Shown: positions 10,055 to 47,055 of the stretch, one piece after another
How positions within the stretch are numbered: position 1 is the stretch's first letter
Layout of the letters: the number at the start of each line of letters is the position of its first letter
Assembly: GCA_964482235.1 (NCBI GenBank)
Contig: CAYZWU010000007.1
Location: forward strand, 3,053-67,052
Direction of reading: 5' to 3'
DNA length: 64,000 nt
Source of the DNA: an uncultured Phycisphaerales bacterium
GTDB taxonomy: Bacteria > Planctomycetota > B15-G4 > CAYZWU01
Notes under the pieces: generated by a model
Seen by the model: only the letters and a program-made list of their open reading frames with translations
Told to the model about the DNA's origin: nothing
The model's database searches: none
Program-made: the position numbers and the translations under genes

Positions 10055-10071
10055 CTACGGCACGTTCCCGA

Positions 10072-11887: not shown

Positions 11888-11935
11888 GCATGTCCGGGTC
11901 GAACCCGGGCCGTCTTCATCGATCAGGCGGGAGTC

Positions 11936-12472: not shown

Positions 12473-12617
12473 TCCAGATCTCCTTTTCCACTGTGTTTAC
12501 TTGGCTATCGCACAACCAGCTTTGTGTGATCTCCCCGCTTTATCGGAGAGTTCGAAAAATGACTTGAATCCCATTTCGGAAATCACTGATTTATTTGGTT
12601 CTTTTTCCTTCACATAT

Positions 12618-25285: not shown

Positions 25286-27010
25286 ATGAAAAGCAGCAGC
25301 AGGATCTCCTCGAGCGATCTCGCCGTGGCCCTCGTCCTGGCGGCCGCAGCCTGGTTTGCCTACTCGCCGGTCACGGAGTGCCGCTTCATCAGCTACGATG
25401 ATCCTCTCTACGTGACGAACAACGGCGAGGTGCAGAAAGGGCTCACCGCCGACGGGATCGCCTGGGCGTTCACCACGGGCCATGCCAACAACTGGAACCC
25501 GGTGACCTGGATCTCCCACATGCTCGACGTGGAGATGCACGACATCGATCCCGGCGGGCATCACGCCACGAGCCTCCTGCTCCACGTCATGAACACCCTG
25601 CTCCTTTTCCTTCTCCTGAAGATGATCACGGGCACGACCTGGCAAAGCGGTTTCGTGGCGGCCCTCTTCGCCCTCCACCCGCTCCACGTCGAGGCGGTCG
25701 CCTGGGTGTCGGACCGGAAGGGCGTGCTGAGCACGTTGTTCTGGATGCTGACCTGCCTGGCCTACGTCCGGTACGTCCGTTCGCGCTCGATGGCCTGGTA
25801 CGCCGCCGCCGTCGCCTTTTTCGCCGTAGGCCTCATGGCGAAGCCCACTGTGATCACGCTTCCCTTCGCCCTGCTTCTTCTCGATGCCTGGCCGCTTGGG
25901 CGCTTCGAGGGTGAGCTCCGATCCCTCGGGGCCTGCATCCGCGCCAACAAGGGCCTCCTGATCGAGAAGGTGCCGTTCCTTGCCATCGCGGCAGTTTCCG
26001 CCGTGATCACCTACCTCGTGCAGGAGCAGACAGGAGCGGTGAGGACCTACGAGGAGATCTCCCTGCTGTCGCGCCTGGCCAACGCCGCCCTTTCCTATCC
26101 GGCCTACATCGTGCAGACCTTCTGGCCGGCCGATCTCGCCTTCTTCTATCCCCACCCCGGGGATGCCGTCGTTCTCTGGCAGGCGGCCGCGGCCCTCTGC
26201 GGCCTCGCGGGGATCTCCTTCGCCGCCTGGTACTACCGCCGATCGTTCCCTGCCGGAGTCGTGGGCTGGTTCTGGTTCGTGGGAACCCTTGTTCCCATGA
26301 TCGGCGTGATCCAGTTCGGCAGGCAGGCGCGGGCCGACCGCTTCACCTACATCCCGCTGATCGGATTCTTCATCATCGTCGTCTGGGGGCTCGTTGCTCT
26401 GCTGGACAGGAGAAAGTCGATCCACCGCCGGATCGTCGCCGCGGCCGGGTGCTGCGTGCTTGTCGTTCTCGGCATCATGACCCATGCCCAGGTCATGACC
26501 TGGACGGATGACGAGAGCCTCTACAGCCACGCCATCGAGAACACGGAGGAAAACTTCATCGCCCACTCGATGCTGGCCAACGTCCTCATGTCGCGCGAGG
26601 AGTTCGCCGATGCCGCCGTGCACTATTCCGAGGCGCTCCGGATCTTCCCCGGCAAGCCTGAGGTGCACGTCAACCGCGGCCGTGCGCGGCTCATGATCGG
26701 CATGACGGGCGAAGCGATCGACGACTTCAGGCAGGCTCTCGAGAAGATGCCCGATGACGCGCCGACCTACACCTTTCTCGCCCTGGCCCTGCTGAAGGAG
26801 AACAGGAAGGCCGAGGCGGAGAAGCACCTGCGCCGGGCGGTGGCCATCGATCCCGATGCCTACCTCGCTCGCTTCAACCTCGGGGTGCTGATGATCAACA
26901 CGCAGCGCCTGAAGGAGGCGGAAGAGCACCTCTCCCGCGCCGTCCGCATCGATCCCTCGAAGGAAGCCGCCCGCAGGGCTCTCGAGCACGTTCGCTCGCA
27001 GCTGAGATGA
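25286..27010 (+). CDS. PMT-family (GT39/DUF1736-like) membrane glycosyltransferase with C-terminal TPR repeats
   Basis: Multi-pass membrane N-terminal region (about 400 aa) followed by at least three TPR motifs (AHSMLANVLMSREEFADAAVHYSEAL...). The alternative upstream start at 25226 is less likely. Confidence 0.65.
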   Translation: MKSSSRISSSDLAVALVLAAAAWFAYSPVTECRFISYDDPLYVTNNGEVQKGLTADGIAWAFTTGHANNWNPVTWISHMLDVEMHDIDPGGHHATSLLLHVMNTLLLFLLLKMITGTTWQSGFVAALFALHPLHVEAVAWVSDRKGVLSTLFWMLTCLAYVRYVRSRSMAWYAAAVAFFAVGLMAKPTVITLPFALLLLDAWPLGRFEGELRSLGACIRANKGLLIEKVPFLAIAAVSAVITYLVQEQTGAVRTYEEISLLSRLANAALSYPAYIVQTFWPADLAFFYPHPGDAVVLWQAAAALCGLAGISFAAWYYRRSFPAGVVGWFWFVGTLVPMIGVIQFGRQARADRFTYIPLIGFFIIVVWGLVALLDRRKSIHRRIVAAAGCCVLVVLGIMTHAQVMTWTDDESLYSHAIENTEENFIAHSMLANVLMSREEFADAAVHYSEALRIFPGKPEVHVNRGRARLMIGMTGEAIDDFRQALEKMPDDAPTYTFLALALLKENRKAEAEKHLRRAVAIDPDAYLARFNLGVLMINTQRLKEAEEHLSRAVRIDPSKEAARRALEHVRSQLR

Positions 27011-27031
27011 ACCCGATCCTTGATCAGTCCA

Positions 27032-28579
27032 TCACTCGATTGTCACGAGCACGTGATTCGTGAGGACCGAGCCGGGATCTCCCTCAAGGCCGATCAGGGC
27101 CTGGAAAACGTGCACGTCTCCCGGCCGGCACCAGGACGGGATAACAACCGGCTCGATGACGATGTTCTCGCCGGGTATCAGCCTGGGGCCGTACCGGACG
27201 ATCGGCCAGGTCGGAAAAAAGTCGCCGTACATGGTCTGTTGGGGAGGATCCTGGACTCCGCCTCCGCGAGCCAGCATTGCGGGCTCCCCGGCAGCACCGA
27301 CGATGCGAACCTCGGCCGAACCGCCCGCCCGGATGTCCCCGCAGATGCAGAGCCGCGGCTCCTCGTGGAACCAGCAGAGAAAGTCGTCCCAGAACCCGTC
27401 CGCGCTGAAGGGAAGCCAGTCGTTGATGTAATCCTCGCGGATGACGCCGTTCGTCTTGGGGAAATAGATGGCGATCCCGTTGTCGTTGGACGTCGGTCCA
27501 TGGGTGGCGATCACGGCGTTTCGACGGCTGTTCACCTTGACGGCCGCATCGTGGATGTCTCCTGACGGGATCTGCTGGATCAGGAGCTCCGCCAGGTGGA
27601 AGAGATCCACGCTGTTCATCCCGCCGTTGTAGAGGCGTACGTTGTCGCGCACCGTCGTGATGTCGGCATGATTCGTGTGCATGGCGAGGGCCAGGCCGCT
27701 CACGTCATCGACGAGCGGCGGGGTCTGCGACAGGTCCATGGCCGACAGGGTGAAAGTGGGATTGACGGCCGCGTAGTCCTTCACGATGGTCGAGCCGAGC
27801 GTTGCCGCGTCCATCTTGGGATTGGCCGTGAGGTCGCCCAGGATCCGGTCGTAGGGCCACATGTTCGATTCGATCATCGCCGAGCCGACCATGACATCGG
27901 AGAAATCCTGCACCAGAAAGGCCACCTCCAGCATGGCCATGTTGCACTCGTCGAAACCGATCAGGTCGATCGCGAAGCCTGCCGAAAAGGCGTTGGCCAC
28001 GGCCTCCTGCAGTTCAGGGGTGTAGAGCTTGTCGTCAGACGTCCAGTCCTGGCCGGCGGCCACCCAGGCGTTGCCGTGGTCCCAGAGGATCAGCGCATAC
28101 CGGTTGGCCGGATAGTTCGTGCAGCCCCAGCGGATGAAGTCTTCCAGGCTGCCGTCATCGGGGGCGGCCATGGCGCCCACGGCCATGTCGCTTTCGCCGA
28201 GGAGCTGAACCTCGTTGCCGGGATCCGGCGTCATACCCTGGGTGATGTGGAAGCGCCGCGTGTCCTTCCAGTCGCCGTGATCCTTCGAATGCCCGCCGAT
28301 GCGGTCGAGCTGCGCCACGATGTTGACCTCGCTGGTGGAGCCGGCCTGGGCGAGCAGGATGAAGCTCGTGAGAGCGCTTCCCTCGAGGTTGTTGTCGCCG
28401 TTCATGAAGAGCATGAAGGTCCATTCGGCCTGGGGAGCCGGCAGGCGCTGGCTCCTGCAATCCGCCTGCTCGTCCCGGCTGGATCCCGGTCGAGCGAGGC
28501 CGTCGGAGCCCGCCTCTTCGCCCGCATCTGCGGCAAGGGCGAGTCCGAGAAGGAAGAGAGAAGCAAGCAGGATTCGCAT
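27032..28579 (-). CDS. clostripain-like cysteine peptidase (family C11, clan CD) with a conserved C-terminal domain shared with two beta-helix proteins
   Basis: Signal peptide MRILLASLFLLGLALA. C11 signature FMLFMNGDNNLE, and catalytic-region motifs WDHGNAW and GFDECNM. The C-terminal ~105 aa align to the tails of 37215..38723 and 43793..45070. Confidence 0.75.
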   Translation of the reverse strand: MRILLASLFLLGLALAADAGEEAGSDGLARPGSSRDEQADCRSQRLPAPQAEWTFMLFMNGDNNLEGSALTSFILLAQAGSTSEVNIVAQLDRIGGHSKDHGDWKDTRRFHITQGMTPDPGNEVQLLGESDMAVGAMAAPDDGSLEDFIRWGCTNYPANRYALILWDHGNAWVAAGQDWTSDDKLYTPELQEAVANAFSAGFAIDLIGFDECNMAMLEVAFLVQDFSDVMVGSAMIESNMWPYDRILGDLTANPKMDAATLGSTIVKDYAAVNPTFTLSAMDLSQTPPLVDDVSGLALAMHTNHADITTVRDNVRLYNGGMNSVDLFHLAELLIQQIPSGDIHDAAVKVNSRRNAVIATHGPTSNDNGIAIYFPKTNGVIREDYINDWLPFSADGFWDDFLCWFHEEPRLCICGDIRAGGSAEVRIVGAAGEPAMLARGGGVQDPPQQTMYGDFFPTWPIVRYGPRLIPGENIVIEPVVIPSWCRPGDVHVFQALIGLEGDPGSVLTNHVLVTIE

Positions 28580-28717
28580 GATCTTCTCCTTGAATGGGTG
28601 AAAGCAGATCTGCTGCATTGTTCCGATTCACGAATTCGAGATTGTATCACAATAAAAGCATATCTGAAGTGAATGAATTCCCGGCAAGGCTGCTGCGGCG
28701 GAGCAGGGAAGGAACGC

Positions 28718-30766
28718 CTACCTGCCGCCGGGCAGCGAGCACCTCGCTGTATCATCCTCGAGGCCGATCTTCTCGAGCGGGATGGGCTCGAAGCCGATCT
28801 TCCAGGCCGGCGAATCGCCCCTGAGCCGGAAGTCCAGAACAGCCTCGTCGAAAAAAAGCGGATCCTGATCAACGAGGTTGTCCTCGAACCGGACGAGAGG
28901 CCTGGCCGCCTTTTCGATGTCGAGCCACCTGCCGCGGACGCTGATGTTCCGCTCGACCACGTTTCCCATGGGTGCGCCGGGCCGGTCGTTCAGGAGGTTC
29001 AAGAGACGGGGATACCTTTTTTTCCAGAGAGGCGTCTCGAAGGGACTGGCCAGGAGCCTCTCCTTCATCACGCCGTCGATGTGATACTTCATCCATCCGA
29101 GTCCGCGTGCGTCGACGTGGACCGAGGGCAGACATTCGACGAAGATGTTGTTGACGACCCTGTTGTCGCGCCCGCCGCCGATGAACGCGGCGCGACCGGC
29201 CCGGTAGAAGAGGTTGCCCGATATCTCGATACCGCTCGCCGCATCGTCGAGGTAGACGGCCATGGCGCCGTGCAGGCCGGGCCCGGAGATGTGGTGAAAG
29301 TAGTTGTGTCGGATGACCGTCCCGCGCATCGTCCAGTCGCGGCCCATGTAGAAGGCGCCCACGTCACCCGTCTCGAAGCAGACATGGTGGATCTCGTTGA
29401 GCTCGATGATGTGCTCGTTCCCGCTGAGCTGGATCGCGTTGTGCGGGCCGTCGTGGATCAGGTTGTGGGCGATCCGGTTGCCCACGCCGCTGATCGCCAC
29501 GGCAGGCCGGTATGTCCGGTAGATCCGGCCGAAGTGGTGGATGTGGTTGTTCTCGGCAAAGTTCCCGGCCGGCGTCAAGGTCTCCCGGTCTCCTCCGCTC
29601 AGGCGGATGCCGCCTTCCGCTGTCCGGTAGATGTCGCAGCCGATCACGCCGTTCTCCCTGCCGCCGGCGATGTCGACGGCGTAGCTGCCCGTGTTGCGGA
29701 TCACGCATCCGGCGATGCGGTTCGCCCGGCCTCCGTGGACGGCAACGGCGGTGGAGCGGGTCGCCTCCAGGATGAGCCCGCGTATCGTGACGAATGACGT
29801 CTTCCTCATCGCGACCAGCATGGGAAGAACCGACAGGACGGCGCGTCCCTTCCCGCGGCCGGCGGGCGGCCTGAAGTAGAGGATCCTCTTGTCCCTGTCG
29901 CAGTACCACTCTCCCGGAGAATCGAGCTCCGAGAGAAGGTTCAGGGCATAGTATCGCTGTCCTTTCCTGTACCCGTAGTTGTGATAGGGAGTCTCGAGGG
30001 CCAGGATGCGCTTTTCCGCGTCGATCGACTTCACCTGCTGATAGGCATCGGACCAGTCCCAGAACCAGTAGCCGTGCAGCCAGATCTCCTTCTCGCCGAT
30101 CCACCGCTCCGCCCTTGCGCCGTCGAAGAAGAACCTGCCGATCTTGCTGCCCGCGATTCCATGGACCTTGTGGCCGTCCTTTTCCACCACATCGATGATG
30201 CGCACGAAGCCGCTTTCCGGCCACCGGGCGAGCGTCATCGCCTCGTCGTCGAAGAAGAGCTCCAGGCGCTTGTTGCGGGCCGTCGCTTCGCCAAGGTCCG
30301 TGATCCCGAGGCGGCCGAGGTCGGCCCGGAGCATTCCCTCGCGGCCGGGACCGGTGGCCGGCTCGAAGTTCGTCACCTCCCGTCCGCCCGTCAGGCGGAC
30401 CTCCTCGCCCGGACAGGCGGAGTAGACGATGGGCGACTCCAAGGTCCCCGAGTCGGCGAGAGAGAGCTCGAATACCCGGGACCGCTCGTAGGTGCCGCCC
30501 CGAAGCATCACAGCCACGCCTCCCATCGGCAGGCCGCCGTCTTGTTTCAGGCCGCGAATTTCATCGCGTGCCCGTTCCAGCGTGGCAAAGGGGCCGTCGT
30601 AGTTCCCGGGTGCGGGGGTTCTGCCGGACCAGCTGTCATTGCCGGCCGGCGAGACGTAGAGCTCGAGGACCTGGCTTTCCGCCTCCGGGCAGAGCCCGGG
30701 AAGAAAGGCCATGAGAAGAAGGATCGAGCGCAGCGGGAAACGTCGTATGTCTGCATGGGGGATCAT
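28718..30766 (-). CDS. secreted right-handed parallel beta-helix protein (pectin-lyase fold); lacks the shared C-terminal domain
   Basis: Signal peptide from MIPHADIRRFPLRSILLLMAF. Multiple beta-helix repeats (NRIAGCVIRNTG, NHIHHFG, NLIHDG...). 683 aa. Confidence 0.65.
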   Translation of the reverse strand: MIPHADIRRFPLRSILLLMAFLPGLCPEAESQVLELYVSPAGNDSWSGRTPAPGNYDGPFATLERARDEIRGLKQDGGLPMGGVAVMLRGGTYERSRVFELSLADSGTLESPIVYSACPGEEVRLTGGREVTNFEPATGPGREGMLRADLGRLGITDLGEATARNKRLELFFDDEAMTLARWPESGFVRIIDVVEKDGHKVHGIAGSKIGRFFFDGARAERWIGEKEIWLHGYWFWDWSDAYQQVKSIDAEKRILALETPYHNYGYRKGQRYYALNLLSELDSPGEWYCDRDKRILYFRPPAGRGKGRAVLSVLPMLVAMRKTSFVTIRGLILEATRSTAVAVHGGRANRIAGCVIRNTGSYAVDIAGGRENGVIGCDIYRTAEGGIRLSGGDRETLTPAGNFAENNHIHHFGRIYRTYRPAVAISGVGNRIAHNLIHDGPHNAIQLSGNEHIIELNEIHHVCFETGDVGAFYMGRDWTMRGTVIRHNYFHHISGPGLHGAMAVYLDDAASGIEISGNLFYRAGRAAFIGGGRDNRVVNNIFVECLPSVHVDARGLGWMKYHIDGVMKERLLASPFETPLWKKRYPRLLNLLNDRPGAPMGNVVERNISVRGRWLDIEKAARPLVRFEDNLVDQDPLFFDEAVLDFRLRGDSPAWKIGFEPIPLEKIGLEDDTARCSLPGGR

Positions 30767-30780
30767 CGGTTCAGTGTATC

Positions 30781-33144
30781 CTATTCCACCTTCCACTCCA
30801 GGACGCCGCCGGAGTAACCGGTCTTCAGCTTCACCTCGATACGGACGGCCGCGGTGCTCACGGTCGCGAATTCCACGCGGTTGAATCGATCGAGCTCCAC
30901 GCCGAATGCCGAGGAGGTCTTGACCGGCTTCCACTGGCCATTCTCCTCGTAGAGGAGCCGCCATGATTCGGGAACGCGGCACTGCCCCCGGCCGGTGTCA
31001 TCGAACCAGTAGACCTCCATTGCGGAGACCTTTCGGGGCGTGTCGAAGTCGTACTGCACCCATTCCTCGGTTCCGCGATGATCCCACCAGGTGAAGCGCG
31101 GCAGCCCGTGGTCGCCGGAGCTCTTCGGCTCGATCTCGTCGTTCATCGCGTCGGCGGCGTCGCTCGCGTGGCAGTGCGAGGCGGAGGCCGTCATCAGCTC
31201 GGCCGGCGACAACGGTGTGGACGGCCCCAGCGCTCTGGGGTCGAGGGATCGGTAGAGAATGCCGTTCCATGCCGGGTCGTCGGCGTCCGGCGATCTCGAT
31301 TTCCCGTCCTGCCTCACCCAGACGGCCATGGGGCCCGGCTCCCTGTGGTCCCAGGCATGGTACGGCACGGCCTGACAGGTGCGCCCTTTGACGTCGCGGC
31401 ACCGGATCACGGTGATCCCGCCGAGAAGATCGGGTTTGTGCAGCACCGAAAATCCAGGTTCCCTGGCCAGGCGGATACGGCGGATGGAGCTGCCGTTGTC
31501 GGCGCCTTCGAAGCAGTAGACGAGCGGTCCCCGCTGCAGGGCGACCCGCCCGGCGTTGGCCTCCACCGACCGGTGGGCTTCGATCCTCTCCACCGGCATG
31601 GGCATGTTGAGCTCGATGCGGTCACCGCTCTGCCAGGTGCGATGAAGCCGGGCATAACCCGATCGTATTTCCGGGAGGCGGATCGGCAGGTCGTTCAGAA
31701 GGATCCGTGCTCCCCGGCACCAACCCGGGATCCGCAGGTTCATGTCGAAGGCTGCCGGCTTCTCCAGCTCGAGCTTCAGCTGGACATGGCCGTCCCAGGG
31801 ATAACGCGTTCTCTGAACGATGGTGACGGCCGCCTCGTCAAGTTGAATCGTGGCCTTGCCGGCCACGTAGAGGTTCACATGGATCCCTTCCGGTCCCAGC
31901 GCATAGACGTATCCCGGCAGCGACGGCACGAAGCGGACGACGTTGCTCGGGCAGCAGGCGCAGGGGTAGAAGGGCTGCCTGTGATGGCCGCCTCCCGAGG
32001 CCAGCGGATTGACGTAGAAGAAGCTCGTTCCGTCGCGCCCGATACCGGAGAGGATCCCGTTGTAGATCACACGCTCGAGCACGTCGGCGTAGCGGGCGTC
32101 GCCGTGCATCAGGTTGAGGCGGTGGGCGAAGAGGGCAAGGCCGATGGCGGCGCACGTCTCCGCGTAGGCCGACTGGTTCGGAAGCTCGTAGGCGGCGCCG
32201 AAGGCCTCGCCGCTGTGCCGCGCGCCGATGCCGCCGGTGATGTACATCTTTTTTTCGACGACGTCCTTCCAGATCCTCTCCATCGCATCGATCCACGGTC
32301 TGTGCCCCGTGTAGGCCGCCACGTCGGCAACGCCGGCGTAGAGGTACATGGCTCGGACGGCATGGCCGACGATCTCGCTCTGGTCGGCGATCAGCGCGTG
32401 ATCCTGGCAGTAGGCGCCGAAGAGAGGGCGTTTCTCCTTGTTGCCTCGGCTTTCCAGGAAGAACTGCGAGAGCTTCATGTACCTGCTGTCGCCCGTGACC
32501 TGGTAGAGCTTCACCAGGGCGAGCTCGATCTCCTCGTGGCCGGGCACGCCCTGGCGCTTTCCGGGCCCGAAGAGAGCGTCGATGCGGTCGGCGAACCGGA
32601 TCGCCACGTCGAGAAGCGTTCGTTTTCCCGTGGCGCGGAAGTGTGCCACCGCCCCCTCGATCAGGTGTCCGGCACAGTAGAGCTCGTGCTTGATCCGCAG
32701 GTCGGACCACCTCTTGTCCGGTTCGGCCAGGGTGTAGAAGGTATTGAGGTACCCGTTCTCCTCCTGGGCGGCGGCGATCCACGCTACCACCTCGTCAACG
32801 GCGGCTTCAAGCACCGGATCGGGCAAATCGGCAAGGGCATAGGACGCCCCCTCGAGCACCTTGTAGACGTCGGAATCGTTGAAGTAGATCCCTTCGAATC
32901 GGCCATCCCGGTGGGCGGCCGATCTCACGAAGTTGCCGAAACGACCGGTCTGCCGGCACCACTTGAAGTTGTGGGGCAACGACTTCTCGCGGTTGATCTC
33001 GATGCGCGGCGCCCAGAATCCGTCCCGGATCTTCACCTCGGTGAACGGCACGCCCGTGAGCTTGCGATGCTCCGGTCCATCCTCACGGCCTGCGGCCGTT
33101 GCAGAACAAAGAAGCGCGAGCGCGATTATGATGATCTGTTTCAT
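30781..33144 (-). CDS. glycoside hydrolase family 127 (beta-L-arabinofuranosidase, DUF1680) with C-terminal discoidin/F5-8-type-C domain
   Basis: Signal peptide MKQIIIIALALLCSA. A GH127 core (about 600 aa, with ELYCAGHLIEG and CCPSN Cys-rich motifs) is followed by a discoidin-like domain (WVQYDFDTPRKVSAMEVYW). Confidence 0.85.
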   Translation of the reverse strand: MKQIIIIALALLCSATAAGREDGPEHRKLTGVPFTEVKIRDGFWAPRIEINREKSLPHNFKWCRQTGRFGNFVRSAAHRDGRFEGIYFNDSDVYKVLEGASYALADLPDPVLEAAVDEVVAWIAAAQEENGYLNTFYTLAEPDKRWSDLRIKHELYCAGHLIEGAVAHFRATGKRTLLDVAIRFADRIDALFGPGKRQGVPGHEEIELALVKLYQVTGDSRYMKLSQFFLESRGNKEKRPLFGAYCQDHALIADQSEIVGHAVRAMYLYAGVADVAAYTGHRPWIDAMERIWKDVVEKKMYITGGIGARHSGEAFGAAYELPNQSAYAETCAAIGLALFAHRLNLMHGDARYADVLERVIYNGILSGIGRDGTSFFYVNPLASGGGHHRQPFYPCACCPSNVVRFVPSLPGYVYALGPEGIHVNLYVAGKATIQLDEAAVTIVQRTRYPWDGHVQLKLELEKPAAFDMNLRIPGWCRGARILLNDLPIRLPEIRSGYARLHRTWQSGDRIELNMPMPVERIEAHRSVEANAGRVALQRGPLVYCFEGADNGSSIRRIRLAREPGFSVLHKPDLLGGITVIRCRDVKGRTCQAVPYHAWDHREPGPMAVWVRQDGKSRSPDADDPAWNGILYRSLDPRALGPSTPLSPAELMTASASHCHASDAADAMNDEIEPKSSGDHGLPRFTWWDHRGTEEWVQYDFDTPRKVSAMEVYWFDDTGRGQCRVPESWRLLYEENGQWKPVKTSSAFGVELDRFNRVEFATVSTAAVRIEVKLKTGYSGGVLEWKVE

Positions 33145-33264
33145 TATTTGTCCTGTTGTCAAAATATGGAAACATATATAAAATATGCATTGACCTTGGT
33201 GGATAGTATCCTAGTCTATCCTCGGTCAAGCGACAAGCCGTATGCCACCTGAGGGAAAACGGGA

Positions 33265-37214: not shown

Positions 37215-38723
37215 ATGAAAACGGTCATTATCTCCCTTCTTCTGTTCATCTGCCTTTCAAGCGAGGCTGCCGACGGTTTTGAAATCATCTACGTCCCTGA
37301 TCATTATGCCTCCATCCAGGAAGCGATCGATGCGGCCTACCCCGGCGATGTCGTCGTGGCGAGGCCGGACACCTATCACGAGAACATCGATTTTCACGGC
37401 AAGGCGATACGCGTTCGCAGCGAGATCGGCCCCCGCTTCACCGTGATCGAGGGGGACCGGACGGGACCGGTGGTCGCGTTTCGGAGCGGCGAGAAGCGGA
37501 CCTCAGTCATCGAGGGATTCACCATCAGGAACGGGACCAACGGAATCGAGTGCTTTCACGCGGCACCGGCCATCGAGGGAAACGTCATCACCGGCAACAC
37601 GACAACGCAGAGCGGCGGGGGGATCCTCTGCACCGGCGACTACTGGAACCTGTACAACATCCTGATCCGCGGCAACGAGATCACCGGCAATGCGGCAGAC
37701 CGGGGCGGCGGCATCTACATGGCCGACACCTTTGCCGGCGAGATCACGGAAAACAGCGTGAGCCATAATCAGGGAGGCGGTATCTATCTGCTGGAGTCCG
37801 GTTTCAGGATCGAGCGGAACTTGGTCAAGCACAACAGGGCGGATCCTACCTGGACCTACGTGGGCGGCGGCATCTCCTGCCAGATGGCTTCGCCCCTGAT
37901 CACGGGAAACGTGGTCGCCTGCAACATTGCCACCGGCATTTTCGGGCGGGGCGGCGGGATCCTCTGCTACTTCGAGGCCGACTGTCTGATCACGGGCAAC
38001 ACGATCGCGGACAACAGCGCCGAGTTCTACGGCGGAGGGATCTGCAACCTGGGATCGAGCGTCAAGGTCGCCGGCACGATCCTCTGGGGGAACAGCGCGC
38101 CCACGGGACCGGCAATCCACGCGGAGAGTAGTTTTTCTCCGCCCTTCATCGCCATGACCTGCTGCGATGTAGAGGGAGGGGTGAACGGCGTCTCGCTGGA
38201 GCCGGGCTCCCAGTTCCAGTGGCTGCCGGGCAACATCGCCCAGCCGCCCCTTTTCGTCGAACCAGGCCGGGAGGATTATCATCTGACCTGGCGCTCGCCG
38301 TGCCGGGACCGGAGCAGCGATGCCCTGCCCGGATTGGCCGATTGCGACATCGAGGGCGATCCGCGTCTTTCGGGCGAGATGCCCGACATCGGAGCCGATG
38401 AGTTCCACCTCCACCTCTACCACTGGGGCGACGTCGTGCCCGGCGGTTTCCTGGACATCCGCCTGGCGGGTAGGCCGGCTACGCGGCCCGTCCTGATCGC
38501 CCTCGGCTCAGGCCTGCTGGACGTGCCGTTCCCGACAGCTTGGGGCGTTTTCTTTCTCCGTCCTCCTCTCGAGATCTACAACGCCGGCGGCATCGGCTCC
38601 TACACCGGGATCCGAAGCATCACCGTCCCTGTCCCGGCGACGTGGAGTCCGGGCGACGTTCATCCGCTCCAGGCCCTGGCCGGCGGCGTCCTGACCAATG
38701 CGCATCTCCTCGAGGTGCAGTGA
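37215..38723 (+). CDS. secreted parallel beta-helix repeat protein with a conserved ~105-aa C-terminal domain
   Basis: Signal peptide MKTVIISLLLFICLSSEA. Repeated G/N-rich beta-helix rungs (NVITGNT, NEITGNAADRGGGIY, NSVSHNQGGGIY...). The C-terminal domain GDVVPGG...WSPGDVHPLQAL...LTN is shared with 27032..28579 and 43793..45070. Confidence 0.7.
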   Translation: MKTVIISLLLFICLSSEAADGFEIIYVPDHYASIQEAIDAAYPGDVVVARPDTYHENIDFHGKAIRVRSEIGPRFTVIEGDRTGPVVAFRSGEKRTSVIEGFTIRNGTNGIECFHAAPAIEGNVITGNTTTQSGGGILCTGDYWNLYNILIRGNEITGNAADRGGGIYMADTFAGEITENSVSHNQGGGIYLLESGFRIERNLVKHNRADPTWTYVGGGISCQMASPLITGNVVACNIATGIFGRGGGILCYFEADCLITGNTIADNSAEFYGGGICNLGSSVKVAGTILWGNSAPTGPAIHAESSFSPPFIAMTCCDVEGGVNGVSLEPGSQFQWLPGNIAQPPLFVEPGREDYHLTWRSPCRDRSSDALPGLADCDIEGDPRLSGEMPDIGADEFHLHLYHWGDVVPGGFLDIRLAGRPATRPVLIALGSGLLDVPFPTAWGVFFLRPPLEIYNAGGIGSYTGIRSITVPVPATWSPGDVHPLQALAGGVLTNAHLLEVQ

Positions 38724-38818: not shown

Positions 38819-40711
38819 ATGCACCGAATCGCACCGCTGCTGCTCCTCTTCCTGGTCTCTCCGCCCCTGGCGGCGGACGATTGCTGGATCTTCCTGAAGG
38901 ACGGCCGCGTGGGCCGGGGCGACATCTCGGGCGAGCCGGTCGTCGTCGCTTTCCCTGACGGTGAGAGCGTCGAGGTCGGGAGCGATCAAATCGATCGCAC
39001 GCGCACGGACAGGCAGATCGCCGAGACCGTCGACGCGATCTTGAGAGATCTGGGCCGGGGCAGGAAGGTGAATGAGCACAAGGAGCGCCTGAAGGAGCTC
39101 GAGGCCGCGGCCGTGCCCCGCCTGATCGATCACCTCCAGGGCGAGAAACCGGTCAACAGGCAGAACGCGCTCTTCGCATTCTGCTATGCCTGGTCGCCGC
39201 GCGCCGTGGGCCCCGTCGCCTGCTGTCTCGACGACCTGGAGCCCTCGATCCGGCGGGCCGCCCTCCTGGCTCTGTCCAGGCACGTGCCGCCCGAGCGCCT
39301 CTACCTCCTCATGAAGAGGATCGTGGAGCACGACGATCCGACGATCGCGATCTTCGGCTTCGAGACAGCGGAGAGGATCCGCCCCGACATCACCCGGATC
39401 GCGAGATTCCTGGCCGAGCCCGAGTGCTGGGACAAGCTGATCCGCTATCTGCCCCGCTACCAGTCGCCCGACCTGATTCCCCTTGTCCGCACCATGCTCG
39501 ACAAGGGGAAGGGCGAGGTGCAGCGGACGGCCGTGGTTTCGCTCGCCATCCTGTGCGACAACGCCGGTGCGACGCGAAGGAAGATGCACGACCTCCTCGA
39601 TGACGCGTCGCCGGAGATCCGCGAGGCGGTCGGCGAGTATTTTGCCTATCATGGAACGGAGAGCGATCTCGAGTCGCTCGAGAAAAGGGCGGCCAGGGAG
39701 AAGGACATCCATGCGAAGACTTCCCTCGTCGCTGCCGCGGAGACGATACGCCGCCGCAGCGAATGGCTTGCCGGCGCGGCCGCCGCTCCCGAAGCCGGGA
39801 CGCTCCATCTTCCGGAATCGGGTGATCCCGCCGAGCTCTACGCGGCAGCCCTCGAGCTGCTGCAAGCCTCCCCGGCGCCCGAAGCGTGGTACCGCTGCTT
39901 CGAGGTCTTCAGGGACGCGGAGCCCCTCGAGCCTCGATTCGTCTACAGGAGCGAGATGCCGGCGCCGTCGTTCCTGGGCAGGATCGAGAAGCGGCTCGCA
40001 CTGCAGGCCGCCCTCTTTGCCAATCCCGCGCCGCAGGCGGAGAGGTCGCCGCAGGAGGGGGAGGGGCCGCCCGTTGCGGAACGCCTTCAGCCGCCGATCC
40101 GCGACTATCTCGACAGATCGCGCAAGAGCTACGGCAAGCTGGTGGACGGCAGCGCCAAGGTCTTCGGCGGCACGGTGCACGTGGGGGATGACACGGGGTG
40201 GCACAGGGACCTCCTCACCGTGGCAGCGATCGGCAACGGGATCGTGCGGCGCGCCGAAACCACCTTCTCCTGGGGCGGCATCGTGATCATCGAGCATCGC
40301 GGGCCGGACGGGAGTTCGTTCTGCTCCCTCTACGCGCACCTGTCGCCCCTTCTTCTCGTTCGATCCGGAGAGAACGTGAAGCGCGGCCGGAAGATCGGTT
40401 CGATAGGGAGGACCCACACCTTCGAGAACGGCGGCTTCAACGCGCACATTCATTTCGGTATCCACCTGGGGCCCTACGTGGATGCGCGCAAGAAGGGGGA
40501 TTCCTTCGAGACCGTGCTGGCCGGCAAGCCGGCGCGGCTCACCGTGGAGGAGGTGCGGGAAGAGAGCTTCCTCTGCCGCTGCGATAACGGCACCCTTGTT
40601 CTGCTGCAGAAGAACCCCGGCTGGGTGGGCGGCTACCTCTCGCCGGCCCGCTTCGAGGCGGGAGATCATGGCTGGGTCGACCCCCAGGCCTTCATCAGGA
40701 AAAGGAGATAA
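38819..40711 (+). CDS. M23 (LytM) family metallopeptidase with an N-terminal HEAT-repeat region
   Basis: Signal peptide present. HEAT-like repeats occupy the N-terminal region. The C-terminal M23 domain carries HVGDDTGWHRD...IIEHRG...AHLS...IGSIGRTH...NAHIHFGIH. Confidence 0.75.
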   Translation: MHRIAPLLLLFLVSPPLAADDCWIFLKDGRVGRGDISGEPVVVAFPDGESVEVGSDQIDRTRTDRQIAETVDAILRDLGRGRKVNEHKERLKELEAAAVPRLIDHLQGEKPVNRQNALFAFCYAWSPRAVGPVACCLDDLEPSIRRAALLALSRHVPPERLYLLMKRIVEHDDPTIAIFGFETAERIRPDITRIARFLAEPECWDKLIRYLPRYQSPDLIPLVRTMLDKGKGEVQRTAVVSLAILCDNAGATRRKMHDLLDDASPEIREAVGEYFAYHGTESDLESLEKRAAREKDIHAKTSLVAAAETIRRRSEWLAGAAAAPEAGTLHLPESGDPAELYAAALELLQASPAPEAWYRCFEVFRDAEPLEPRFVYRSEMPAPSFLGRIEKRLALQAALFANPAPQAERSPQEGEGPPVAERLQPPIRDYLDRSRKSYGKLVDGSAKVFGGTVHVGDDTGWHRDLLTVAAIGNGIVRRAETTFSWGGIVIIEHRGPDGSSFCSLYAHLSPLLLVRSGENVKRGRKIGSIGRTHTFENGGFNAHIHFGIHLGPYVDARKKGDSFETVLAGKPARLTVEEVREESFLCRCDNGTLVLLQKNPGWVGGYLSPARFEAGDHGWVDPQAFIRKRR

Positions 40712-40713
40712 CC

Positions 40714-42405
40714 GTGACGGCAGCTTTCGCCCCTCTTTGCTCGGCACTGATCCGGCTGCTTTTCGCGGCGGCTCTGGTCTGGCCGGCAGGTCCGGCCCGG
40801 TCCGCGGCGGGCCAGCCGCGGAATGACCTGTTCGGCACGGAATCGGCTCTCGAGAACGGCGGCTTCGAGAAGGGATCGGACCGCGCGATCCCTCGCTGGC
40901 AGAAGGTCTGGCCGCCCTTCGCCGACCGCGAGCCGCTGTTCCGGCATGTGGCGAAGGGGGCTCATGGGGGCCGATCCTGCGCCTCGATCGAGACGTTCCA
41001 CCAGGGGGGATACACCTCCTGGACACAGAGGATCGAGAGACCGCCTGAAGGGGCCACCGTCGTGCATCTCGAGGGATGGATCCGCTTCGACGATTCAGGA
41101 GAAGGCGGCCGGGCCCGCGCGTCCCTCCTGATGCTCTTTTCCGGTTCCGGGATGCGGGACGACGGCGCCGTCCTCTCCACGCCCTGGATCGACTCGTCGA
41201 CCAGGGAATGGACGAGGGTGGAGCATGACATGGTGGTGCCCGAGGGCGCGGAGAAATGGATGGTGCGGTGCGGCGTGACGGGAAAGGCCCGCGTCTTCTT
41301 CGACGACATCAGGGTCACCTGGTCCACGAAGAAGGCGAAGTGGAGCACCGCGGTCCTCGTCGAGACGTCAGGCCGGTATCAGGTGCGGGCCGCCGCATCG
41401 GCCAGGAAGGCGTGGGCCATGGTCTCGATCCCCTTCCCCTACATGGGACAGACTCCCCTGGCGATCGGCGTGAGATCCGAGCCGGAGAAGGCGATCGACC
41501 GGCTCGAGATCGTGAAGGACCGGGAGAACAGGTTCCTCAAGGTCTGGTTCGAGGGGATGAAGCCCGGCGACGGGATCAGGTTCGATGTGCGCACCCTCGT
41601 CCTCGTCAGGGACCGGCCCCTCCCGGACGGGAAGGGCATCGCCCTGGCCGGTCGGGGCAAGGTGCCGAAGGAGGTGAAGCCGTTCCTCGAGCCTTCCGAC
41701 GGCCTGGAAACGGAGGACGAGACGATCCGGAAGATCGCCGGCCGTTTCGACAGGACCGACCTCGCCTCCATGATGGCCGGCCTGACCGGTTATCTCAGGG
41801 AGAACATGGAGTACGAGCCCGGAGGCGACCAGGGCGCCAGGGCGTCGATCGTTTCGAAGAGGGCGGTCTGCACCGGCTTCGCCAACGCGGCGGCTGCGCT
41901 GCTCATCGCGGCCGGCGTCCCGACCCGCATCCTGGCCTGCACCCAGACGGAGGGCGAGCTCCAGGAGCATTACATCGTGGAAGCCTGGACCCGTGAGCTC
42001 GGCTGGTCGCGCTGCGAGTCGACGATGGCGGAGTTTCCCTGGGCCGACACGCGCAACGTGATACTCCGGGTGATCTACCCCGACGCCTCACGCACGTCGG
42101 GCAACGTACCGATCTTCATGGAGAGCGGCGGCGGCGTCATGATGGGGGCGGACATGGGTGGATCGAACGGCTGCTGGCAGTCTGCAGCAACACTGCGGAG
42201 CCTGATCGTTCGTGCCGAGGATCTGGCGCCCCTCGAAGAGCTCCTGCGGAAGGCTTTCGAGAAGGCAGCGAAAAAGGCGGTGCGCGGGAGCTCGATCAGC
42301 TTCATCCCCAAGGCGGCGAAGATGAGGGGGATCGACGACGGCATCAAGGATCTGATGAAGGAGATGGAAGGCCGTCTCTCGAGAGAGAGTCGACAGGCAA
42401 AGTGA
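40714..42405 (+). CDS. transglutaminase-like cysteine protease/crosslinking-domain protein with an N-terminal CBM-like beta-sandwich
   Basis: Signal peptide present. The N-terminal region is CBM4/9-like (GGFEKG...W...). The core is transglutaminase-like ([22 protein letters not shown]...H...D). Confidence 0.65.
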
Positions 42406-42418
42406 TAGGAGGCGCTCC

Positions 42419-43789
42419 ATGACCGGACGGAAGAGAAAAGGGATCGGAAATGGGAAAGAACTGAGCCGCCGGGCTTTCCTGGGGCAAGCCGCCGCAGGCG
42501 CGACGCTGTTCACCATCGTGCCGCGCCACGTTCTCGGCGGACCGGGATACGTCGCGCCGAGCGACAAGCTCGACATCGCCTGCATCGGCGTGGGCGGCAA
42601 GGGGCGTTCCGACGCGGACGGCGTGAGCAGCGAGAACATCGTGGCGCTCTGCGACGTGGACGAGAGGCGTGCAGCGGGCGCGTTCAACCGTTATCCCGGC
42701 GCAGCGCGGTACAGCGACTTCAGGAAGATGCTCGATGAGATGAAGAACATCGACGCCGTCACCGTGTCCACCCCGGACCACACCCACGCGGTGATCGCCA
42801 TGACGGCCATCAGGATGGGCAAGCACGTCTACTGCCAGAAGCCGCTGACGCACTCCGTCTTCGAGGCGCGCTCCCTTGCCGTGGAGGCGCGGCGGCAGGG
42901 GGTGGCCACGCAGATGGGGAACCAGGGGCACGCTTCGGAAGAGACGCGCCGGCTTTGCGAGCTGATCCAGGGCGGGGCGATCGGCCCGGTCCGCGAGGTT
43001 CACTCCTGGACGGACAGGCCGTCGCGCGGGCTCTTCGCCGAGTACTGGCCCCAGGGTGTGGGCCGGCCGGACGACCGGCCGCCCGTGCCGGATCACCTTC
43101 ACTGGGATCTCTGGCTCGGCCCGGCGCCCGAGCGGCCCTACCACCCGGCGTACGCTCCCTTCAGGTGGCGCGGGTGGTGGGATTTCGGAACAGGGGCGCT
43201 GGGCGACATCGGCTGCCATTCCCTCGATCCGATCTTCCGGGCCCTCGATCTCCATGCGCCGCTCAGCTTCCAGGCCACCTCCACGCGGGTGAACAGCGAG
43301 ACCTATCCACTGGCGTCGATCGTGGAGCATCGCTTCGGTCCGAGGGGGGACAGGCCGCCCGTGACCCTGACCTGGTACGACGGCGGACTGAAGCCGCCCC
43401 GTCCGCCGGAGCTCGAGCCGGGTTTCGCCATGGGCGACGGCGGAACCCTCTACGTGGGTGACAAGGGCAAGATGCTGGGGCTTCACATCTTTCCCGAATC
43501 GCGGCGGGCCGGGTTCGAGGAGCCGCCCAGGATATTGCCGCGCTCGATCGGTCACTACAGGGAGTGGATCGAAGCGTGCAAGGGAGGCGAGGCGGCGGGA
43601 TCGAACTTCGACATCTCCGGACCGCTGACAGAGACGGTTCTTTTGGGCAACGTCGCCCTGCGGCCCGAGCTGAGAGAAAAGCTGACGCAGCAGGCGCTCG
43701 AGTGGGATTGGGAGAACCTGAAGATCACCAACCTCCCCGAGGCGAACGACTTTCTCCATCGTCCCTACAGGGAGGGGTGGACGTTGTGA
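42419..43789 (+). CDS. Gfo/Idh/MocA-family oxidoreductase with Tat signal (GH109-like)
   Basis: Tat motif [12 protein letters not shown]. Rossmann fold [12 protein letters not shown]. 456 aa, comparable to GH109-like periplasmic dehydrogenases. Confidence 0.8.
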
Positions 43790-43792
43790 TTT

Positions 43793-45070
43793 TCAGTATG
43801 TCAGGATCATCAGGTTCGTGAGGCGCGACCCCGGAGCCTGGGGCCCCACGAGTGCCTGAAAGGGATGTCTGTCGCCGGCAAGCCACGATGCCGGCACCGT
43901 TCCGGGATGGATCAGCACACCGTTCGCGGGAATGACGCCGAGATCATAGATCCCGAGCAGAGGTGACAGGAGATGGAAGTCGCCGTATGGCGTGACGAGC
44001 GGCGGATCCTGAACACCTGAACCGTGAGCGAGCCTCACGGGAGCCATGCCCGGCTGTCCGACCACCTTGATCTCGATCGATCCGCCCGGCGCCACGTCGC
44101 CGGAGTGGTAGAGGTGGTAGAAGAACTCGTCGGCTCCGATGTCGATCCTGTCGCCGGCGATCCGCGGGTCGCCTTCGTAGTCGAGTTCAGGGACATCGGG
44201 CGGCGTGTCGATGCCTGTGTCCCGGCAGGGCGAGTCGAAGGTCAGGTGAAAATCGAAATGCGGCGGATTGAAAACGTCCACGAAGAGCGGATCGGCGTCG
44301 ATGTTGCCCGGGCCCTGCCATCCTCCCTTCACGTTGCAGTGGCTCACCACGACCTGGTTGATGAGTGAGATGAAGAGGTCCGGGTCCGACGGAGCGTAGT
44401 TGTCCCGCACGATCGTGTTGAAGATCTTGATGTTCGGCAGCTGCAAGAAGATGACATAGATCCCACCGCCTGAAACGGAAGCCGTATTGAGCGTCACCGT
44501 GTTGTTGACGATTCTCGTCGAGGGCTCCGGGTCGACGCATCCGATGCCGCCGCCGTAGTCCGCCGTGTTCGCGGTGACGATGTTGTTGATGATCTTGGAG
44601 GAGCTGTAGTAGCCGCAGAAGATCCCACCGCCGCAATCGGCCTTGTTGGCCATCACGACGTTGTTGCGGATTGTGGGGGTGCTCCACCAGGCCGAGTAGA
44701 TTCCGCCGCCGCAGAGACCGCCGTACTTCCTGTCGTATGTTCCCGTCCCGTTCCTGATGCAGAATCCCTCGAACACCGAACCCTGGGCCTTCTCGCTGTC
44801 AAAGGTGACCACGCTCCCGTTGCCGTTGCCGTCGATCACGGTGTAGGCGGGGCCGAGCTCGCTTTTCAGGATCACGGGCCTGTCATAGCTGTCATCGATG
44901 TTTTCCACGTAGGTCCCCGGCCTGACGATGATCGTGTCTCCGGCAGCGGCGGCGTCGATGGCGCCCTGGATCGTCGTATGGTCGTCGGGGACGTAGATCG
45001 TCCTCCCCTGGGAGATTGCGGCGAGAAGAAGGCAGGCGGACAAGGTGCAACACAGTTTTTTGCTGAACAT
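43793..45070 (-). CDS. secreted parallel beta-helix repeat protein with the conserved C-terminal domain; paralogue of 37215..38723
   Basis: The N-terminal region aligns with 37215..38723 (TIYVPDDHTTIQGAIDAAAAGDTIIVRPGTYVENID). Beta-helix rungs are present. The C-terminus GDVAPGG...WLAGDRHPFQAL...LTNLMILTY matches the shared domain. Confidence 0.7.
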   Translation of the reverse strand: MFSKKLCCTLSACLLLAAISQGRTIYVPDDHTTIQGAIDAAAAGDTIIVRPGTYVENIDDSYDRPVILKSELGPAYTVIDGNGNGSVVTFDSEKAQGSVFEGFCIRNGTGTYDRKYGGLCGGGIYSAWWSTPTIRNNVVMANKADCGGGIFCGYYSSSKIINNIVTANTADYGGGIGCVDPEPSTRIVNNTVTLNTASVSGGGIYVIFLQLPNIKIFNTIVRDNYAPSDPDLFISLINQVVVSHCNVKGGWQGPGNIDADPLFVDVFNPPHFDFHLTFDSPCRDTGIDTPPDVPELDYEGDPRIAGDRIDIGADEFFYHLYHSGDVAPGGSIEIKVVGQPGMAPVRLAHGSGVQDPPLVTPYGDFHLLSPLLGIYDLGVIPANGVLIHPGTVPASWLAGDRHPFQALVGPQAPGSRLTNLMILTY

Positions 45071-45195: not shown

Positions 45196-47055
45196 TCAGG
45201 CGCTGCCCAGGCTCACCTCGACCATCTGCTCCTGATCGCCGTGCTGATACCGGATCTTGACCACGTCGCCCGGCTTGTGCCTGCGGAGCACGTTGCGGAA
45301 TCCGCTTCTTCCCTCGATCGGCTCGTCGTCGATGGCCAGGAGGATATCCCCCTTCAACAGCCCGGCCTTCTCCGCGCCGCCGCCCGGAATGATCCTGCTG
45401 ATCCTGAGGCCGGGCTTGCCTTCCTCGGCCGACTCGACCATCACGCCGAAGGTGGCTCGCGGTCCGCGCCGGCGCCCCGTTTCCTGGAAAGTGGGGCGTG
45501 CGTTGCTGTTGGCAACGATGAGTGCCGTCTTGAAGGCGACATTCAGGACGTCGACAGCACCTGTCACGTTGCAGTTCTCCAGGTCGTCGTCAGGCGTGTG
45601 GTACGCCTTGTGGATCCCGCTGAAGAAGAAGAGGACGGGGATCTTCTTCGAGAGGAAGGAGGACTGGTCCGATCCGCCGAAGCCGCCTTCGCTGTGCCGC
45701 CAGGTCACCGGCGACTCGAACTCGGCCTCTTTCAGGATCGCTTCCCACTCCTTCGCCGTTCCGGTGCCCATGATGCTGCACTTCTTGTCCGTCACGTGGG
45801 CGATCATGTCGAGGTTGATCATCGCCACCGTCTTCTCCAGGGGGAAGAATGGATTGCTCACGTAGTGGCGCGAGCCGAGCAGGCCCTTCTCCTCCGCATC
45901 GTAGAGCTGGAAGAGGATCGACCTCCTGGGCCGCACGTCGGCCTGGACGAACGCTTCGGCCAGCTCGATCACGCCGATGGACCCCGACCCGTTGTCATCG
46001 GCTCCGTTGTGGACTTCTCCCTTTCGCTTGGGGGTCCTGCTGCCGTAGGCACCCAGGCCGAGGTGGTCGTAATGGGCGCCGATCACGAGCACCTCGTTCT
46101 TCAGAACGGGATCGGAGCCTTCGAGCAAGCCGATAACGTTGCGGGCCTTGGCGAGATATCCCACCTCGGCATGGAGATCGATCCTCGGACCGCTGATCTC
46201 CAGCGAGGCCGGCTTGCCGGTCGTGTCGATCTTCTTCTGGAGATCGGCGAGCGAGGTGCCGGCATGGCCGAGAATCTCTTTCGCCAGGCCGCCCCGGACG
46301 TGGATCATCGGGATCTTCGAGTTGCTGGATGCCCGCGTGGAGAGATCGCCCAGGGGATCGCGGTCCGGGTCGTGATGAATGGGGCCGTTCACGAAGAGGA
46401 CGGCTTTGGCGCCGTGCTTTCCGGCATTCTCGATCTTCGTGGTGAAGTAGGAGTGTCTTGTGCCCGACGCTCCTTTCCAGGCCGACGTCGTATCCTTTTC
46501 CTGGGGCTCATGCCTGAGGATCAGCACGATCTTGTCCTGTGCGTCGATCCCCTCATAGTCATCGTACTCGAATTCCGGCGCAGTGATCCCGTACCCCGCG
46601 AAAACGACCTCCGTATCCTTGAGGTCCACCTTGGAGCAACCGCCCAGGAGAGACCATTCTTTTCCCGCCGCGAAGCTCTTTCCGTCGATCGTCAGGCAGT
46701 GCCCGGGCAGCAGGCCTCTTCTGCCTCCTCTCTCGAAGGTCTGGAAGTAGGAGGGCTCTCCGTCGATCGGATCCCCGAGGGGCTTCAGCCCGAGCTTCGA
46801 AAACTCGCCGGCCGCAAAGTCGCCGGCCTCGATGCTGCCGGCGGTTCCCGGCTCGCGGCCTCCCCTCGAGTCGGCCGAGAACCAGCCCAGCTCGCCGCTG
46901 TACTCTTTTGCATCCAGCGTGGAGAGGGCTTTCTGTACCTCGGGTTTCTCGAGGAGAGAGGAGAGCTCTTCTCCCAGCAAGCCTGTCGAGACGAACGGGG
47001 CGATGAGGAAGAAGACAACGCACAGCGAAATGCGGATTTTTCCTGTTATCTGCAT
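45196..47055 (-). CDS. M28-family aminopeptidase with PA domain and C-terminal PDZ domain
   Basis: Signal peptide present. M28 zinc-ligand motifs (HYDHLG, DDNGSGS, EEKGLLGS, HTPDD). The C-terminal PDZ domain carries GLRISRIIPGGGAEKAGLLKGDILLAID. Confidence 0.8.
   Translation of the reverse strand: MQITGKIRISLCVVFFLIAPFVSTGLLGEELSSLLEKPEVQKALSTLDAKEYSGELGWFSADSRGGREPGTAGSIEAGDFAAGEFSKLGLKPLGDPIDGEPSYFQTFERGGRRGLLPGHCLTIDGKSFAAGKEWSLLGGCSKVDLKDTEVVFAGYGITAPEFEYDDYEGIDAQDKIVLILRHEPQEKDTTSAWKGASGTRHSYFTTKIENAGKHGAKAVLFVNGPIHHDPDRDPLGDLSTRASSNSKIPMIHVRGGLAKEILGHAGTSLADLQKKIDTTGKPASLEISGPRIDLHAEVGYLAKARNVIGLLEGSDPVLKNEVLVIGAHYDHLGLGAYGSRTPKRKGEVHNGADDNGSGSIGVIELAEAFVQADVRPRRSILFQLYDAEEKGLLGSRHYVSNPFFPLEKTVAMINLDMIAHVTDKKCSIMGTGTAKEWEAILKEAEFESPVTWRHSEGGFGGSDQSSFLSKKIPVLFFFSGIHKAYHTPDDDLENCNVTGAVDVLNVAFKTALIVANSNARPTFQETGRRRGPRATFGVMVESAEEGKPGLRISRIIPGGGAEKAGLLKGDILLAIDDEPIEGRSGFRNVLRRHKPGDVVKIRYQHGDQEQMVEVSLGSA

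Follow-up and report, generated by a model that had tools for sequence, protein, structure and literature searches.

A C-terminal domain family new to Pfam and NCBIfam on exported beta-helix proteins and a C11 peptidase of an uncultured Phycisphaerales bacterium

Introduction

To our knowledge, little is established about the anchoring of surface proteins in Planctomycetota. Among the described systems that come closest to the element reported here, the C-terminal domains (CTDs) of type IX secretion system (T9SS) cargo proteins (type A, TIGR04183/PF18962 Por_Secre_tail; type B, TIGR04131) are folded beta-sandwiches of ≈80-100 residues on Sec-exported proteins. One genome encodes many of them as paralogues, and their passengers are unrelated to each other, with peptidases and beta-helix proteins among them. 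The GlyGly-CTERM signal is short and consists of a hydrophobic helix and basic residues. The choice-of-anchor names denote surface proteins with alternative C-terminal anchors, a statement made at its source for choice-of-anchor A. Rhombotarget A (RbtA) of A. baumannii is a cell-surface protein that is listed among the substrates of the type II secretion system (T2SS). Here we describe a C-terminal domain (the tail) shared by three exported proteins that are encoded in a 64,000-nucleotide stretch (the window) of contig CAYZWU010000007.1 from an uncultured Phycisphaerales bacterium, and we define the family to which it belongs.

Results

A C-terminal homology of ≈105-107 residues is common to three proteins of the window (BLASTP E values of 1e-9 to 1e-19), as a preliminary description of the sequence had claimed. 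Protein A (502 amino acids; 37215..38723, + strand) consists of a signal peptide, a right-handed beta-helix (Pfam Beta_helix, 2.1e-15; NosD, 4.3e-11), a choice-of-anchor-Q-like segment, and the tail (residues 396-502; 38400..38720, + strand, without the stop codon). Protein B (425 amino acids; 43793..45070, - strand) contains a signal peptide, a beta-helix (Pfam DUF1565, 1.2e-4), a choice-of-anchor Q segment, and the tail (residues 319-425; 43796..44116, - strand, without the stop codon). In protein C (515 amino acids; 27032..28579, - strand), the tail (residues 409-515; 27035..27355, - strand, without the stop codon) follows a signal peptide and a C11 (clostripain-family) peptidase (Pfam Peptidase_C11, 9.5e-32, residues 58-401), which passes the PF03415 gathering score with 111.4 bits compared to a cutoff of 25.8. 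A and B are full-length paralogues (37% identity across 500 amino acids, E 1.5e-68). By contrast, the C11 part of C showed no BLASTP similarity to A or B, which agrees with the initial statement that the upstream parts of the peptidase and the beta-helix proteins are unrelated. The tails of B and C are 45% identical across 102 amino acids (E 1.3e-19), and residues 405-502 of A align with residues 414-515 of C at 36% identity over 106 amino acids (E 9.5e-10).

A hidden Markov model (HMM) built from the three tails scored 157, 181, and 180 bits for A, B, and C, respectively, in a six-frame translation of the window, where nothing else exceeded 4.3 bits, and it found the domain in no other open reading frame (ORF) of the window. 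The absence of the tail from a third beta-helix protein (28718..30766), remarked on in the preliminary description, was confirmed by BLASTP, Pfam, and this HMM. All three carriers have signal-peptide-like N-termini, as first reported, on a heuristic reading of their sequences. The domain had been thought to end 3-4 residues before the stop codon. Instead, the LTN motif lies 7 residues before the protein end and the final residue is the end of the last beta-strand, which implies that the domain runs to the stop codon. The window is part of a marine metagenome contig of 116 kb, which was seen in several samples.

We searched 1.84 billion cluster representatives (clusters at 50% identity) exhaustively with HMMER and obtained 1,056 tail clusters at E ≤ 1e-3 and 664 at E ≤ 1e-10, showing that the family is far wider than three genes. 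No Pfam-A or NCBIfam r20 model recurrently matched the three window tails and 65 diverse tails (hmmscan, E ≤ 10). At this threshold, the Por_Secre_tail, PEP-CTERM, CHU_C, FlgD_ig, and choice-of-anchor models matched none of the 65 diverse tails, and the early impression that the tail resembles neither Por_Secre_tail, PEP-CTERM, nor sortase motifs was thereby upheld. A profile search of all PDB sequences returned no relative (best E 0.5). A word-indexed homology search gave no matches to a single tail and, for a 65-tail profile, only short fragments that are uninformative on architecture. One candidate relative was rejected. TIGR03437 Soli_cterm, an uncharacterized C-terminal domain of Solibacter, is likewise a C-terminal paralogous domain of exported proteins, and residues 56-103 of the A tail aligned with positions 179-225 of the 225 in its profile (E 0.047; 13 versus 29 bits); we treated this match as chance, because only one of the 65 tails gave it, far below the cutoff. 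We conclude that the tail represents a large uncatalogued domain family, new to Pfam and NCBIfam, where the sequence family is new and the beta-sandwich kind of domain is already known.

A scan of metagenome-assembled genomes (MAGs) with an alignment of an 8-tail subset, which is a narrow pattern, placed genome-derived carriers in MAGs labelled Phycisphaerales and Gemmatimonadota, and this single narrow search pattern found five tail loci in one Phycisphaerales MAG. The names of cluster members were uninformative on taxonomy. Tail copies are also numerous in metagenomes, with ≈30 loci in one of them. Tetranucleotide clustering was tried for the number of copies per genome and was too coarse, as it put 34 loci into one cluster.

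Carrier architecture was determined for 261 non-redundant, non-fragment proteins pooled from the cluster representatives, full-length relatives of B, and 50 fetched loci. The A/B-type family (signal peptide, beta-helix, and choice-of-anchor Q) accounted for 256 of them (98%). The others were three C11 peptidases (window protein C, P0002, and L032), one DUF7948 protein (Pfam match 1.4e-45), and one FG-GAP propeller (FG-GAP_3, 1.5e-27) with a divergent tail. Signal-peptide-like N-termini were present in 121 of the 140 top matches that start with Met. The home of the tail is the C-terminus of a Sec-exported, Pmp/NosD-like beta-helix family of Planctomycetota-type (Phycisphaerales) and Gemmatimonadota MAGs, whose members are currently annotated in NCBI only as "right-handed parallel beta-helix repeat-containing protein".

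The exported N-terminal modules that bear the tail are of four unrelated kinds (Beta_helix/NosD, Peptidase_C11, DUF7948, and FG-GAP_3). The tail of the DUF7948 carrier is 74% identical to beta-helix tails and retains their GIGANEF-HT-HLY junction, implying that this transfer was recent. Two further C11 proteins with tails are orthologue-like to C, at 69% (P0002) and 46% (L032) identity. The nearest relatives of the L032 tail are beta-helix tails (50-57%), not the tail of window protein C, while the C11 domains of the two proteins are 46% identical. Since the tails of these two C11 lineages are not mutual nearest relatives, the sequence comparison suggests that the tail may have been repeatedly acquired or replaced in C11 peptidases. 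Thus, the tail is a truly transferred module, but transfers are rare, and it is overwhelmingly the domain of one family. The preliminary description of a shuffled module, as opposed to simple paralogy, therefore holds for the C11, DUF7948, and FG-GAP carriers and not for most carriers, because 98% belong to a single beta-helix family.

The tail directly follows a choice-of-anchor Q segment (NF041518). In B, this segment (residues 270-316; 44123..44263, - strand) scored 26.9 bits, above the cutoff of 25, and ends in DIGADEF, two residues ahead of the tail start. The corresponding segment of A (residues 355-397; 38277..38405, + strand) scored below this cutoff (17.9 bits, E 0.0027) and nevertheless shares the DIGADEF-xx-HLY junction. 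Across 270 family members, the helix-tail junction is rigid at two residues and has no variable linker: the tail begins exactly two residues past D-x-G-A-x-E-F/Y in 232, and the rest are near-variants with the same spacing. Some beta-helix relatives stop right after the junction motif (P0230; L013, 1..783). In L021 (1..2886, - strand), a different beta-rich C-terminal region (...GSLSGTVPGVYLPGGGGVLRLRWD...) comes after the choice-of-anchor Q segment (residues 831-871). It is cut by the locus edge, has no Pfam or NCBIfam match, and is another occupant of the anchor slot. The relatives with no tail and the relative with another domain imply that the tail is an optional add-on in this slot.

In AlphaFold2 (AF2) models, the tail of B alone formed an all-beta sandwich (predicted local distance difference test score, pLDDT, of 81). 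The full-length model of B (overall pLDDT 86; predicted template modeling score, pTM, 0.70) placed the tail at pLDDT 85-95, the helix at >90, and the segment linking them at 50-70; this low-confidence stretch is the choice-of-anchor Q segment. The preliminary description had left it to structure prediction to decide whether the tail is a beta-sandwich, and on these models the ≈105-residue tail is predicted to fold as an autonomous Ig/FN3-like beta-sandwich, with the Ig-like sandwich that marks T9SS CTDs. The PDB structure nearest to the full-length model of B is Rhombotarget A (9cdu/9cdv, E 5e-5).

The dominance of one carrier family raises the alternative that the tail is a structural or oligomerization domain of the beta-helix family, acting as a cap, stabilizer, or multimerization element with no role in targeting, and that the other carriers are incidental fusions. 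The 256 carriers out of 261 from one family, the invariant D-x-G-A-x-E-F/Y-xx-HLY junction, the retention of its own tail by every helix unit of tandem fusions, and a degree of conservation similar to the rest of the protein are all consistent with such a role. It accounts poorly, however, for the tail-less beta-helix relatives (P0230, L013 1..783, and the second unit of L030) and for a C11-tail fusion that is kept across lineages with 46%-identical C11 domains, apparently with replacement of the tail. AF2 likewise modeled the tail as a separate domain behind a low-confidence segment (pTM 0.70). We consider a purely structural domain quite unlikely.

The best Foldseek matches of the tail were the beta-1,3-glucan-binding protein GNBP3 (3ie4; E 6e-3, TMq 0.58) and carbohydrate-binding module (CBM) family CBM56 (5t7a/6a6c), and further matches were to chitin-binding or AA10 domains. 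The tail showed no sequence match to CBM39 or CBM56. These matches favor a second alternative, in which the tail is a CBM-like accessory module that binds a carbohydrate or other ligand and directs its passenger, a beta-helix lyase/adhesin or a protease, to a substrate outside rather than to the cell that produces it. The conserved aromatic residues Y3, Y44, W78, and F86 and the conserved loop QDPP..TPYGD would suit a binding surface of this kind, the window encodes glycan-active proteins (GH127, a GH141-like beta-helix protein, and a sulfatase), and accessory modules tolerate internal positions. Yet CBMs are typically variable in position, arranged in tandem, and found on many enzyme families, whereas the tail is single-copy, nearly always terminal, and carried in 98% of cases by one passenger family with no known catalytic activity. 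On balance, we regard this alternative as unlikely.

For 296 tails, the maximum 19-residue Kyte-Doolittle hydropathy averaged 1.27, the mean net charge was -3.1, and the mean isoelectric point was 5.6; the tails contained no transmembrane-like segment, basic tail, or conserved cysteine. The motif, hydrophobic helix, and basic tail of PEP-CTERM, LPXTG, GlyGly-CTERM, and MYXO-CTERM domains were thus not found, and no such models matched. The lack of a transmembrane-like segment and of a conserved cysteine, together with the mildly acidic character of the tail, excludes the PEP-CTERM, LPXTG, and GlyGly-CTERM classes.

A single tail lies within 5 residues of the protein end in 239 of the 261 carriers (92%), and 8 carriers have 6-15 extra residues after it. 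Six carriers are tandem fusions of two helix-tail units and eight have an internal tail and no terminal one, so that 14 (5%) contain an internal copy. The strictly C-terminal position first attributed to the tail is therefore not supported, and the tail differs in this respect from T9SS CTDs, which are found obligately at the extreme C-terminus. For three internal-tail carriers, the ORF was verified to be complete. L030 terminates with a second, tail-less helix unit (...VVDMGFHYRLP, then stop). In the beta-helix proteins of L038 (2512..4920, + strand) and L054 (6648..8576, - strand), a PPPPP linker connects the tail to an unannotated domain of ≈180 residues (YDDGSSE...GGDMCW...WCLRAGY, then stop). 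Neither Pfam nor NCBIfam has a model that matches this domain, the second uncatalogued one described here. Among 240 terminal tails, the consensus end is ...L-T-N-L-M-V-L-T-V-E, with V at position -2 in 87%, E at position -1 in 70%, and E, D, or Q at position -1 in 86%.

Several further observations concern the copies themselves. One Phycisphaerales MAG locus (L015, 3090..12779) contains a tandem array of 5-6 tail-bearing beta-helix genes. In other cases (L047, 1223..3877; L051, 6599..10342; L009, 7124..10324), two complete helix-tail units are fused in frame without an intervening signal peptide. The array and fusions indicate rapid duplication and fusion dynamics in this family. A lone 123-residue tail ORF (L040, 3337..3708, identical to L041, 9941..10312) has stops in all upstream frames and neither a passenger nor a signal peptide, and thus probably represents what is left of a carrier, as a remnant or pseudogene. 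We also considered whether a PDZ peptidase recognizes the ...VE C-terminus, as an M28-PDZ gene adjoins B and an S41-PDZ gene lies within the window. This idea was dropped; no M28-PDZ or S41-PDZ homologue was present near the tail genes of nine genome loci.

The near-constant terminus bears on a third alternative, in which the tail would genuinely serve secretion or sorting as a C-terminal domain like the T9SS CTD, recognized by a dedicated outer-membrane translocon or attachment complex and possibly removed after transport. A single terminal tail in 92% of carriers with a fixed ...LTNLMVLTVE end, its restriction to proteins with signal peptides (121/140 Met-starting top matches), its position after choice-of-anchor Q, and its placement always downstream of four unrelated passengers would fit this role. 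So would the beta-sandwich fold, the many copies per genome (the five loci of one MAG, the L015 array, and the ≈30 loci of one metagenome), and a match of the FG-GAP region of L047 to NF052323, a family of "T9SS-dependent" cargo (2e-23). However, the terminus can be explained otherwise. Transfers replace the 3' end of a gene, so that the stop codon travels with the module; this by itself can explain a fixed terminus, as can descent. Moreover, an end-dependent signal is difficult to reconcile with 14 internal tails among 261, some of them in complete ORFs (L030, L038, and L054), and with a junction that is fixed at two residues in place of a variable cleavable linker. The T9SS type A and B models matched none of the 65 tails at E ≤ 10, and the tail is no more conserved than its passengers. 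No linked machinery gene was found: no sortase, translocon, or similar neighbor recurred in more than 5 of ≈45 loci, and T9SS core genes (SprA/Sov, PorV, PorU, and PorK-N) were not seen in the window or in ≈50 loci. We know of no T9SS in Planctomycetota. A T9SS-like sorting domain is an improbable explanation of the tail.

Genes surrounding the tail genes were recorded in the window and at other loci. A T2SS- or type IV pilus (T4P)-like cluster (4526..14139, - strand) contains a secretin-like protein (12892..14139, - strand) with weak PilQ/GspD matches, a GspE-like ORF (10072..11787, - strand), a GspF-like ORF (8855..10054, - strand), and several prepilin-type proteins with GFSLIELV N-termini (including 8160..8846 and 11936..12472, - strand). 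The tail-bearing proteins could be exported by way of this cluster. The gene for C is flanked on one side by a PMT_2/tetratricopeptide-repeat, glycosyltransferase-like membrane protein (25226..27010) and on the other by the tail-less beta-helix protein, which is GH141-like (28718..30766), beside which lies a GH127 beta-L-arabinofuranosidase with an F5/8 type C domain (30781..33162); this region (25226..33162) is a glycan-processing neighborhood. Three genes between A and B (38819..43789) encode proteins that look exported or periplasmic: an M23 peptidase that carries HEAT repeats (38819..40711), a protein with a transglutaminase core (40714..42405), and a GFO/IDH/MocA oxidoreductase (42419..43789) with an N-terminus similar to a twin-arginine signal. 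The M28-PDZ peptidase (45196..47055) follows B. This gene order, including the M28-PDZ gene, is kept in other samples that contain the same contig and not in the loci of other genomes.

Large proteins with an extracytoplasmic function (ECF) sigma-70-like N-terminus and a long CarboxypepD_reg-like extension adjoin tail genes in the window (49902..51899 and 48796..49917, both - strand) and at three of eight genome loci (L014, 10358..13333; L015, 1..3033; L011, 5054..8533), with blastp E values of 1e-23 to 1e-33. These neighbors were not enriched in the larger metagenome set and may reflect coincidence within an abundant paralogue family. At L008, from a Phycisphaerales MAG, paralogous exported proteins of ≈370 residues (7229..8341 and 10370..11494) flank the tail gene on both sides.

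Discussion

We tentatively favor the interpretation that the tail occupies the anchor slot of exported proteins as a folded C-terminal module for surface retention or binding, and hold it at somewhat less than even confidence. In this proposal, a carrier would be exported by Sec and would then fold in the periplasm. It would reach the cell surface, as its closest structural relative, the T2SS-dependent RbtA, does, and the tail would hold or present the passenger there by binding non-covalently to a partner protein or to a component of the envelope. The tail would thus act as a folded binding module in the slot that is otherwise occupied by LPXTG, PEP-CTERM, GlyGly-CTERM, or T9SS domains, and not as a cleaved linear signal. 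An anchoring or sorting role is consistent with the restriction of the tail to exported proteins, with its nearly always terminal position and many copies per genome, with the T2SS/T4P-like cluster in the window, with RbtA as the closest structure, and with the position of the tail after choice-of-anchor Q. The surface location, retention role, and secretion route of the carriers are inferred. Moreover, the tolerance of internal tail copies implies that a folded binding module fits better than an end-dependent signal.

Several results weigh against this interpretation. The tail is not more conserved than its passenger (mean pairwise identity of 0.50 compared to 0.45-0.61), and so gives no sign of a shared partner that constrains the tails. 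The genes near tails include no recurrent family, as even the most frequent one is present in 5 of ≈45 loci. Surface location is presumed by analogy with relatives only. Finally, the concentration of 98% of the carriers in one family, together with the rigid junction, would fit a vertically inherited structural domain equally well.

A sorting role for the tail is possible, and nothing that we tested points to sorting, cleavage, or dedicated machinery specifically. In its broader form, the tail would be the tag by which an undescribed CTD-type system of Planctomycetota and Gemmatimonadota recognizes its cargo for sorting or attachment, either as a functional analogue of the T9SS CTD or as a structural secretion or retention signal for T2SS cargo. 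Its partner, a translocon or anchor protein, would be encoded elsewhere in the genome; we give this version little credence. If such partner machinery exists, then the tail belongs to a new sorting system; if not, then its interest is the modest one of a new Ig-like accessory domain.

Independent of its function, defining the tail as a domain would improve the annotation of a large set of exported paralogues in Phycisphaerae-like and Gemmatimonadota MAGs from marine and other metagenomes; neither Pfam nor NCBIfam currently models this family of >1,000 sequence clusters. Located in the choice-of-anchor slot, the tail also provides a concrete handle on how Planctomycetota keep proteins at the surface.

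Compared to known systems, the tail shares with T9SS CTDs a folded C-terminal beta-sandwich on Sec-exported proteins, the many paralogues per genome, and the unrelated passengers. It is unlike them in lacking a sequence match at E ≤ 10 among 65 tails, in that it can be internal, and in its rigid, linker-less junction. In addition, its carriers come from MAGs labelled Planctomycetota or Gemmatimonadota and not Bacteroidota, and 98% of them belong to one passenger family. The isolated tail is similar in size and beta-sandwich topology to the GNBP3/CBM39-like domain (3ie4) and to CBM56 (5t7a/6a6c). The full-length proteins are closest to the choice-of-anchor Q/RbtA type (PDB 9cdv/9cdu), which has the same kind of beta-helix as A and B and in which the helix domain of RbtA also ends in a similarly placed motif (...LGAIEYI) that is followed by a C-terminal anchoring region. 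From its family name, we take RbtA to be a target of rhombosortase (GlyGly-CTERM). Unlike the GlyGly-CTERM of RbtA, the slot in the proteins described here holds a 105-residue soluble, mildly acidic domain, predicted to be a beta-sandwich, without a hydrophobic helix.

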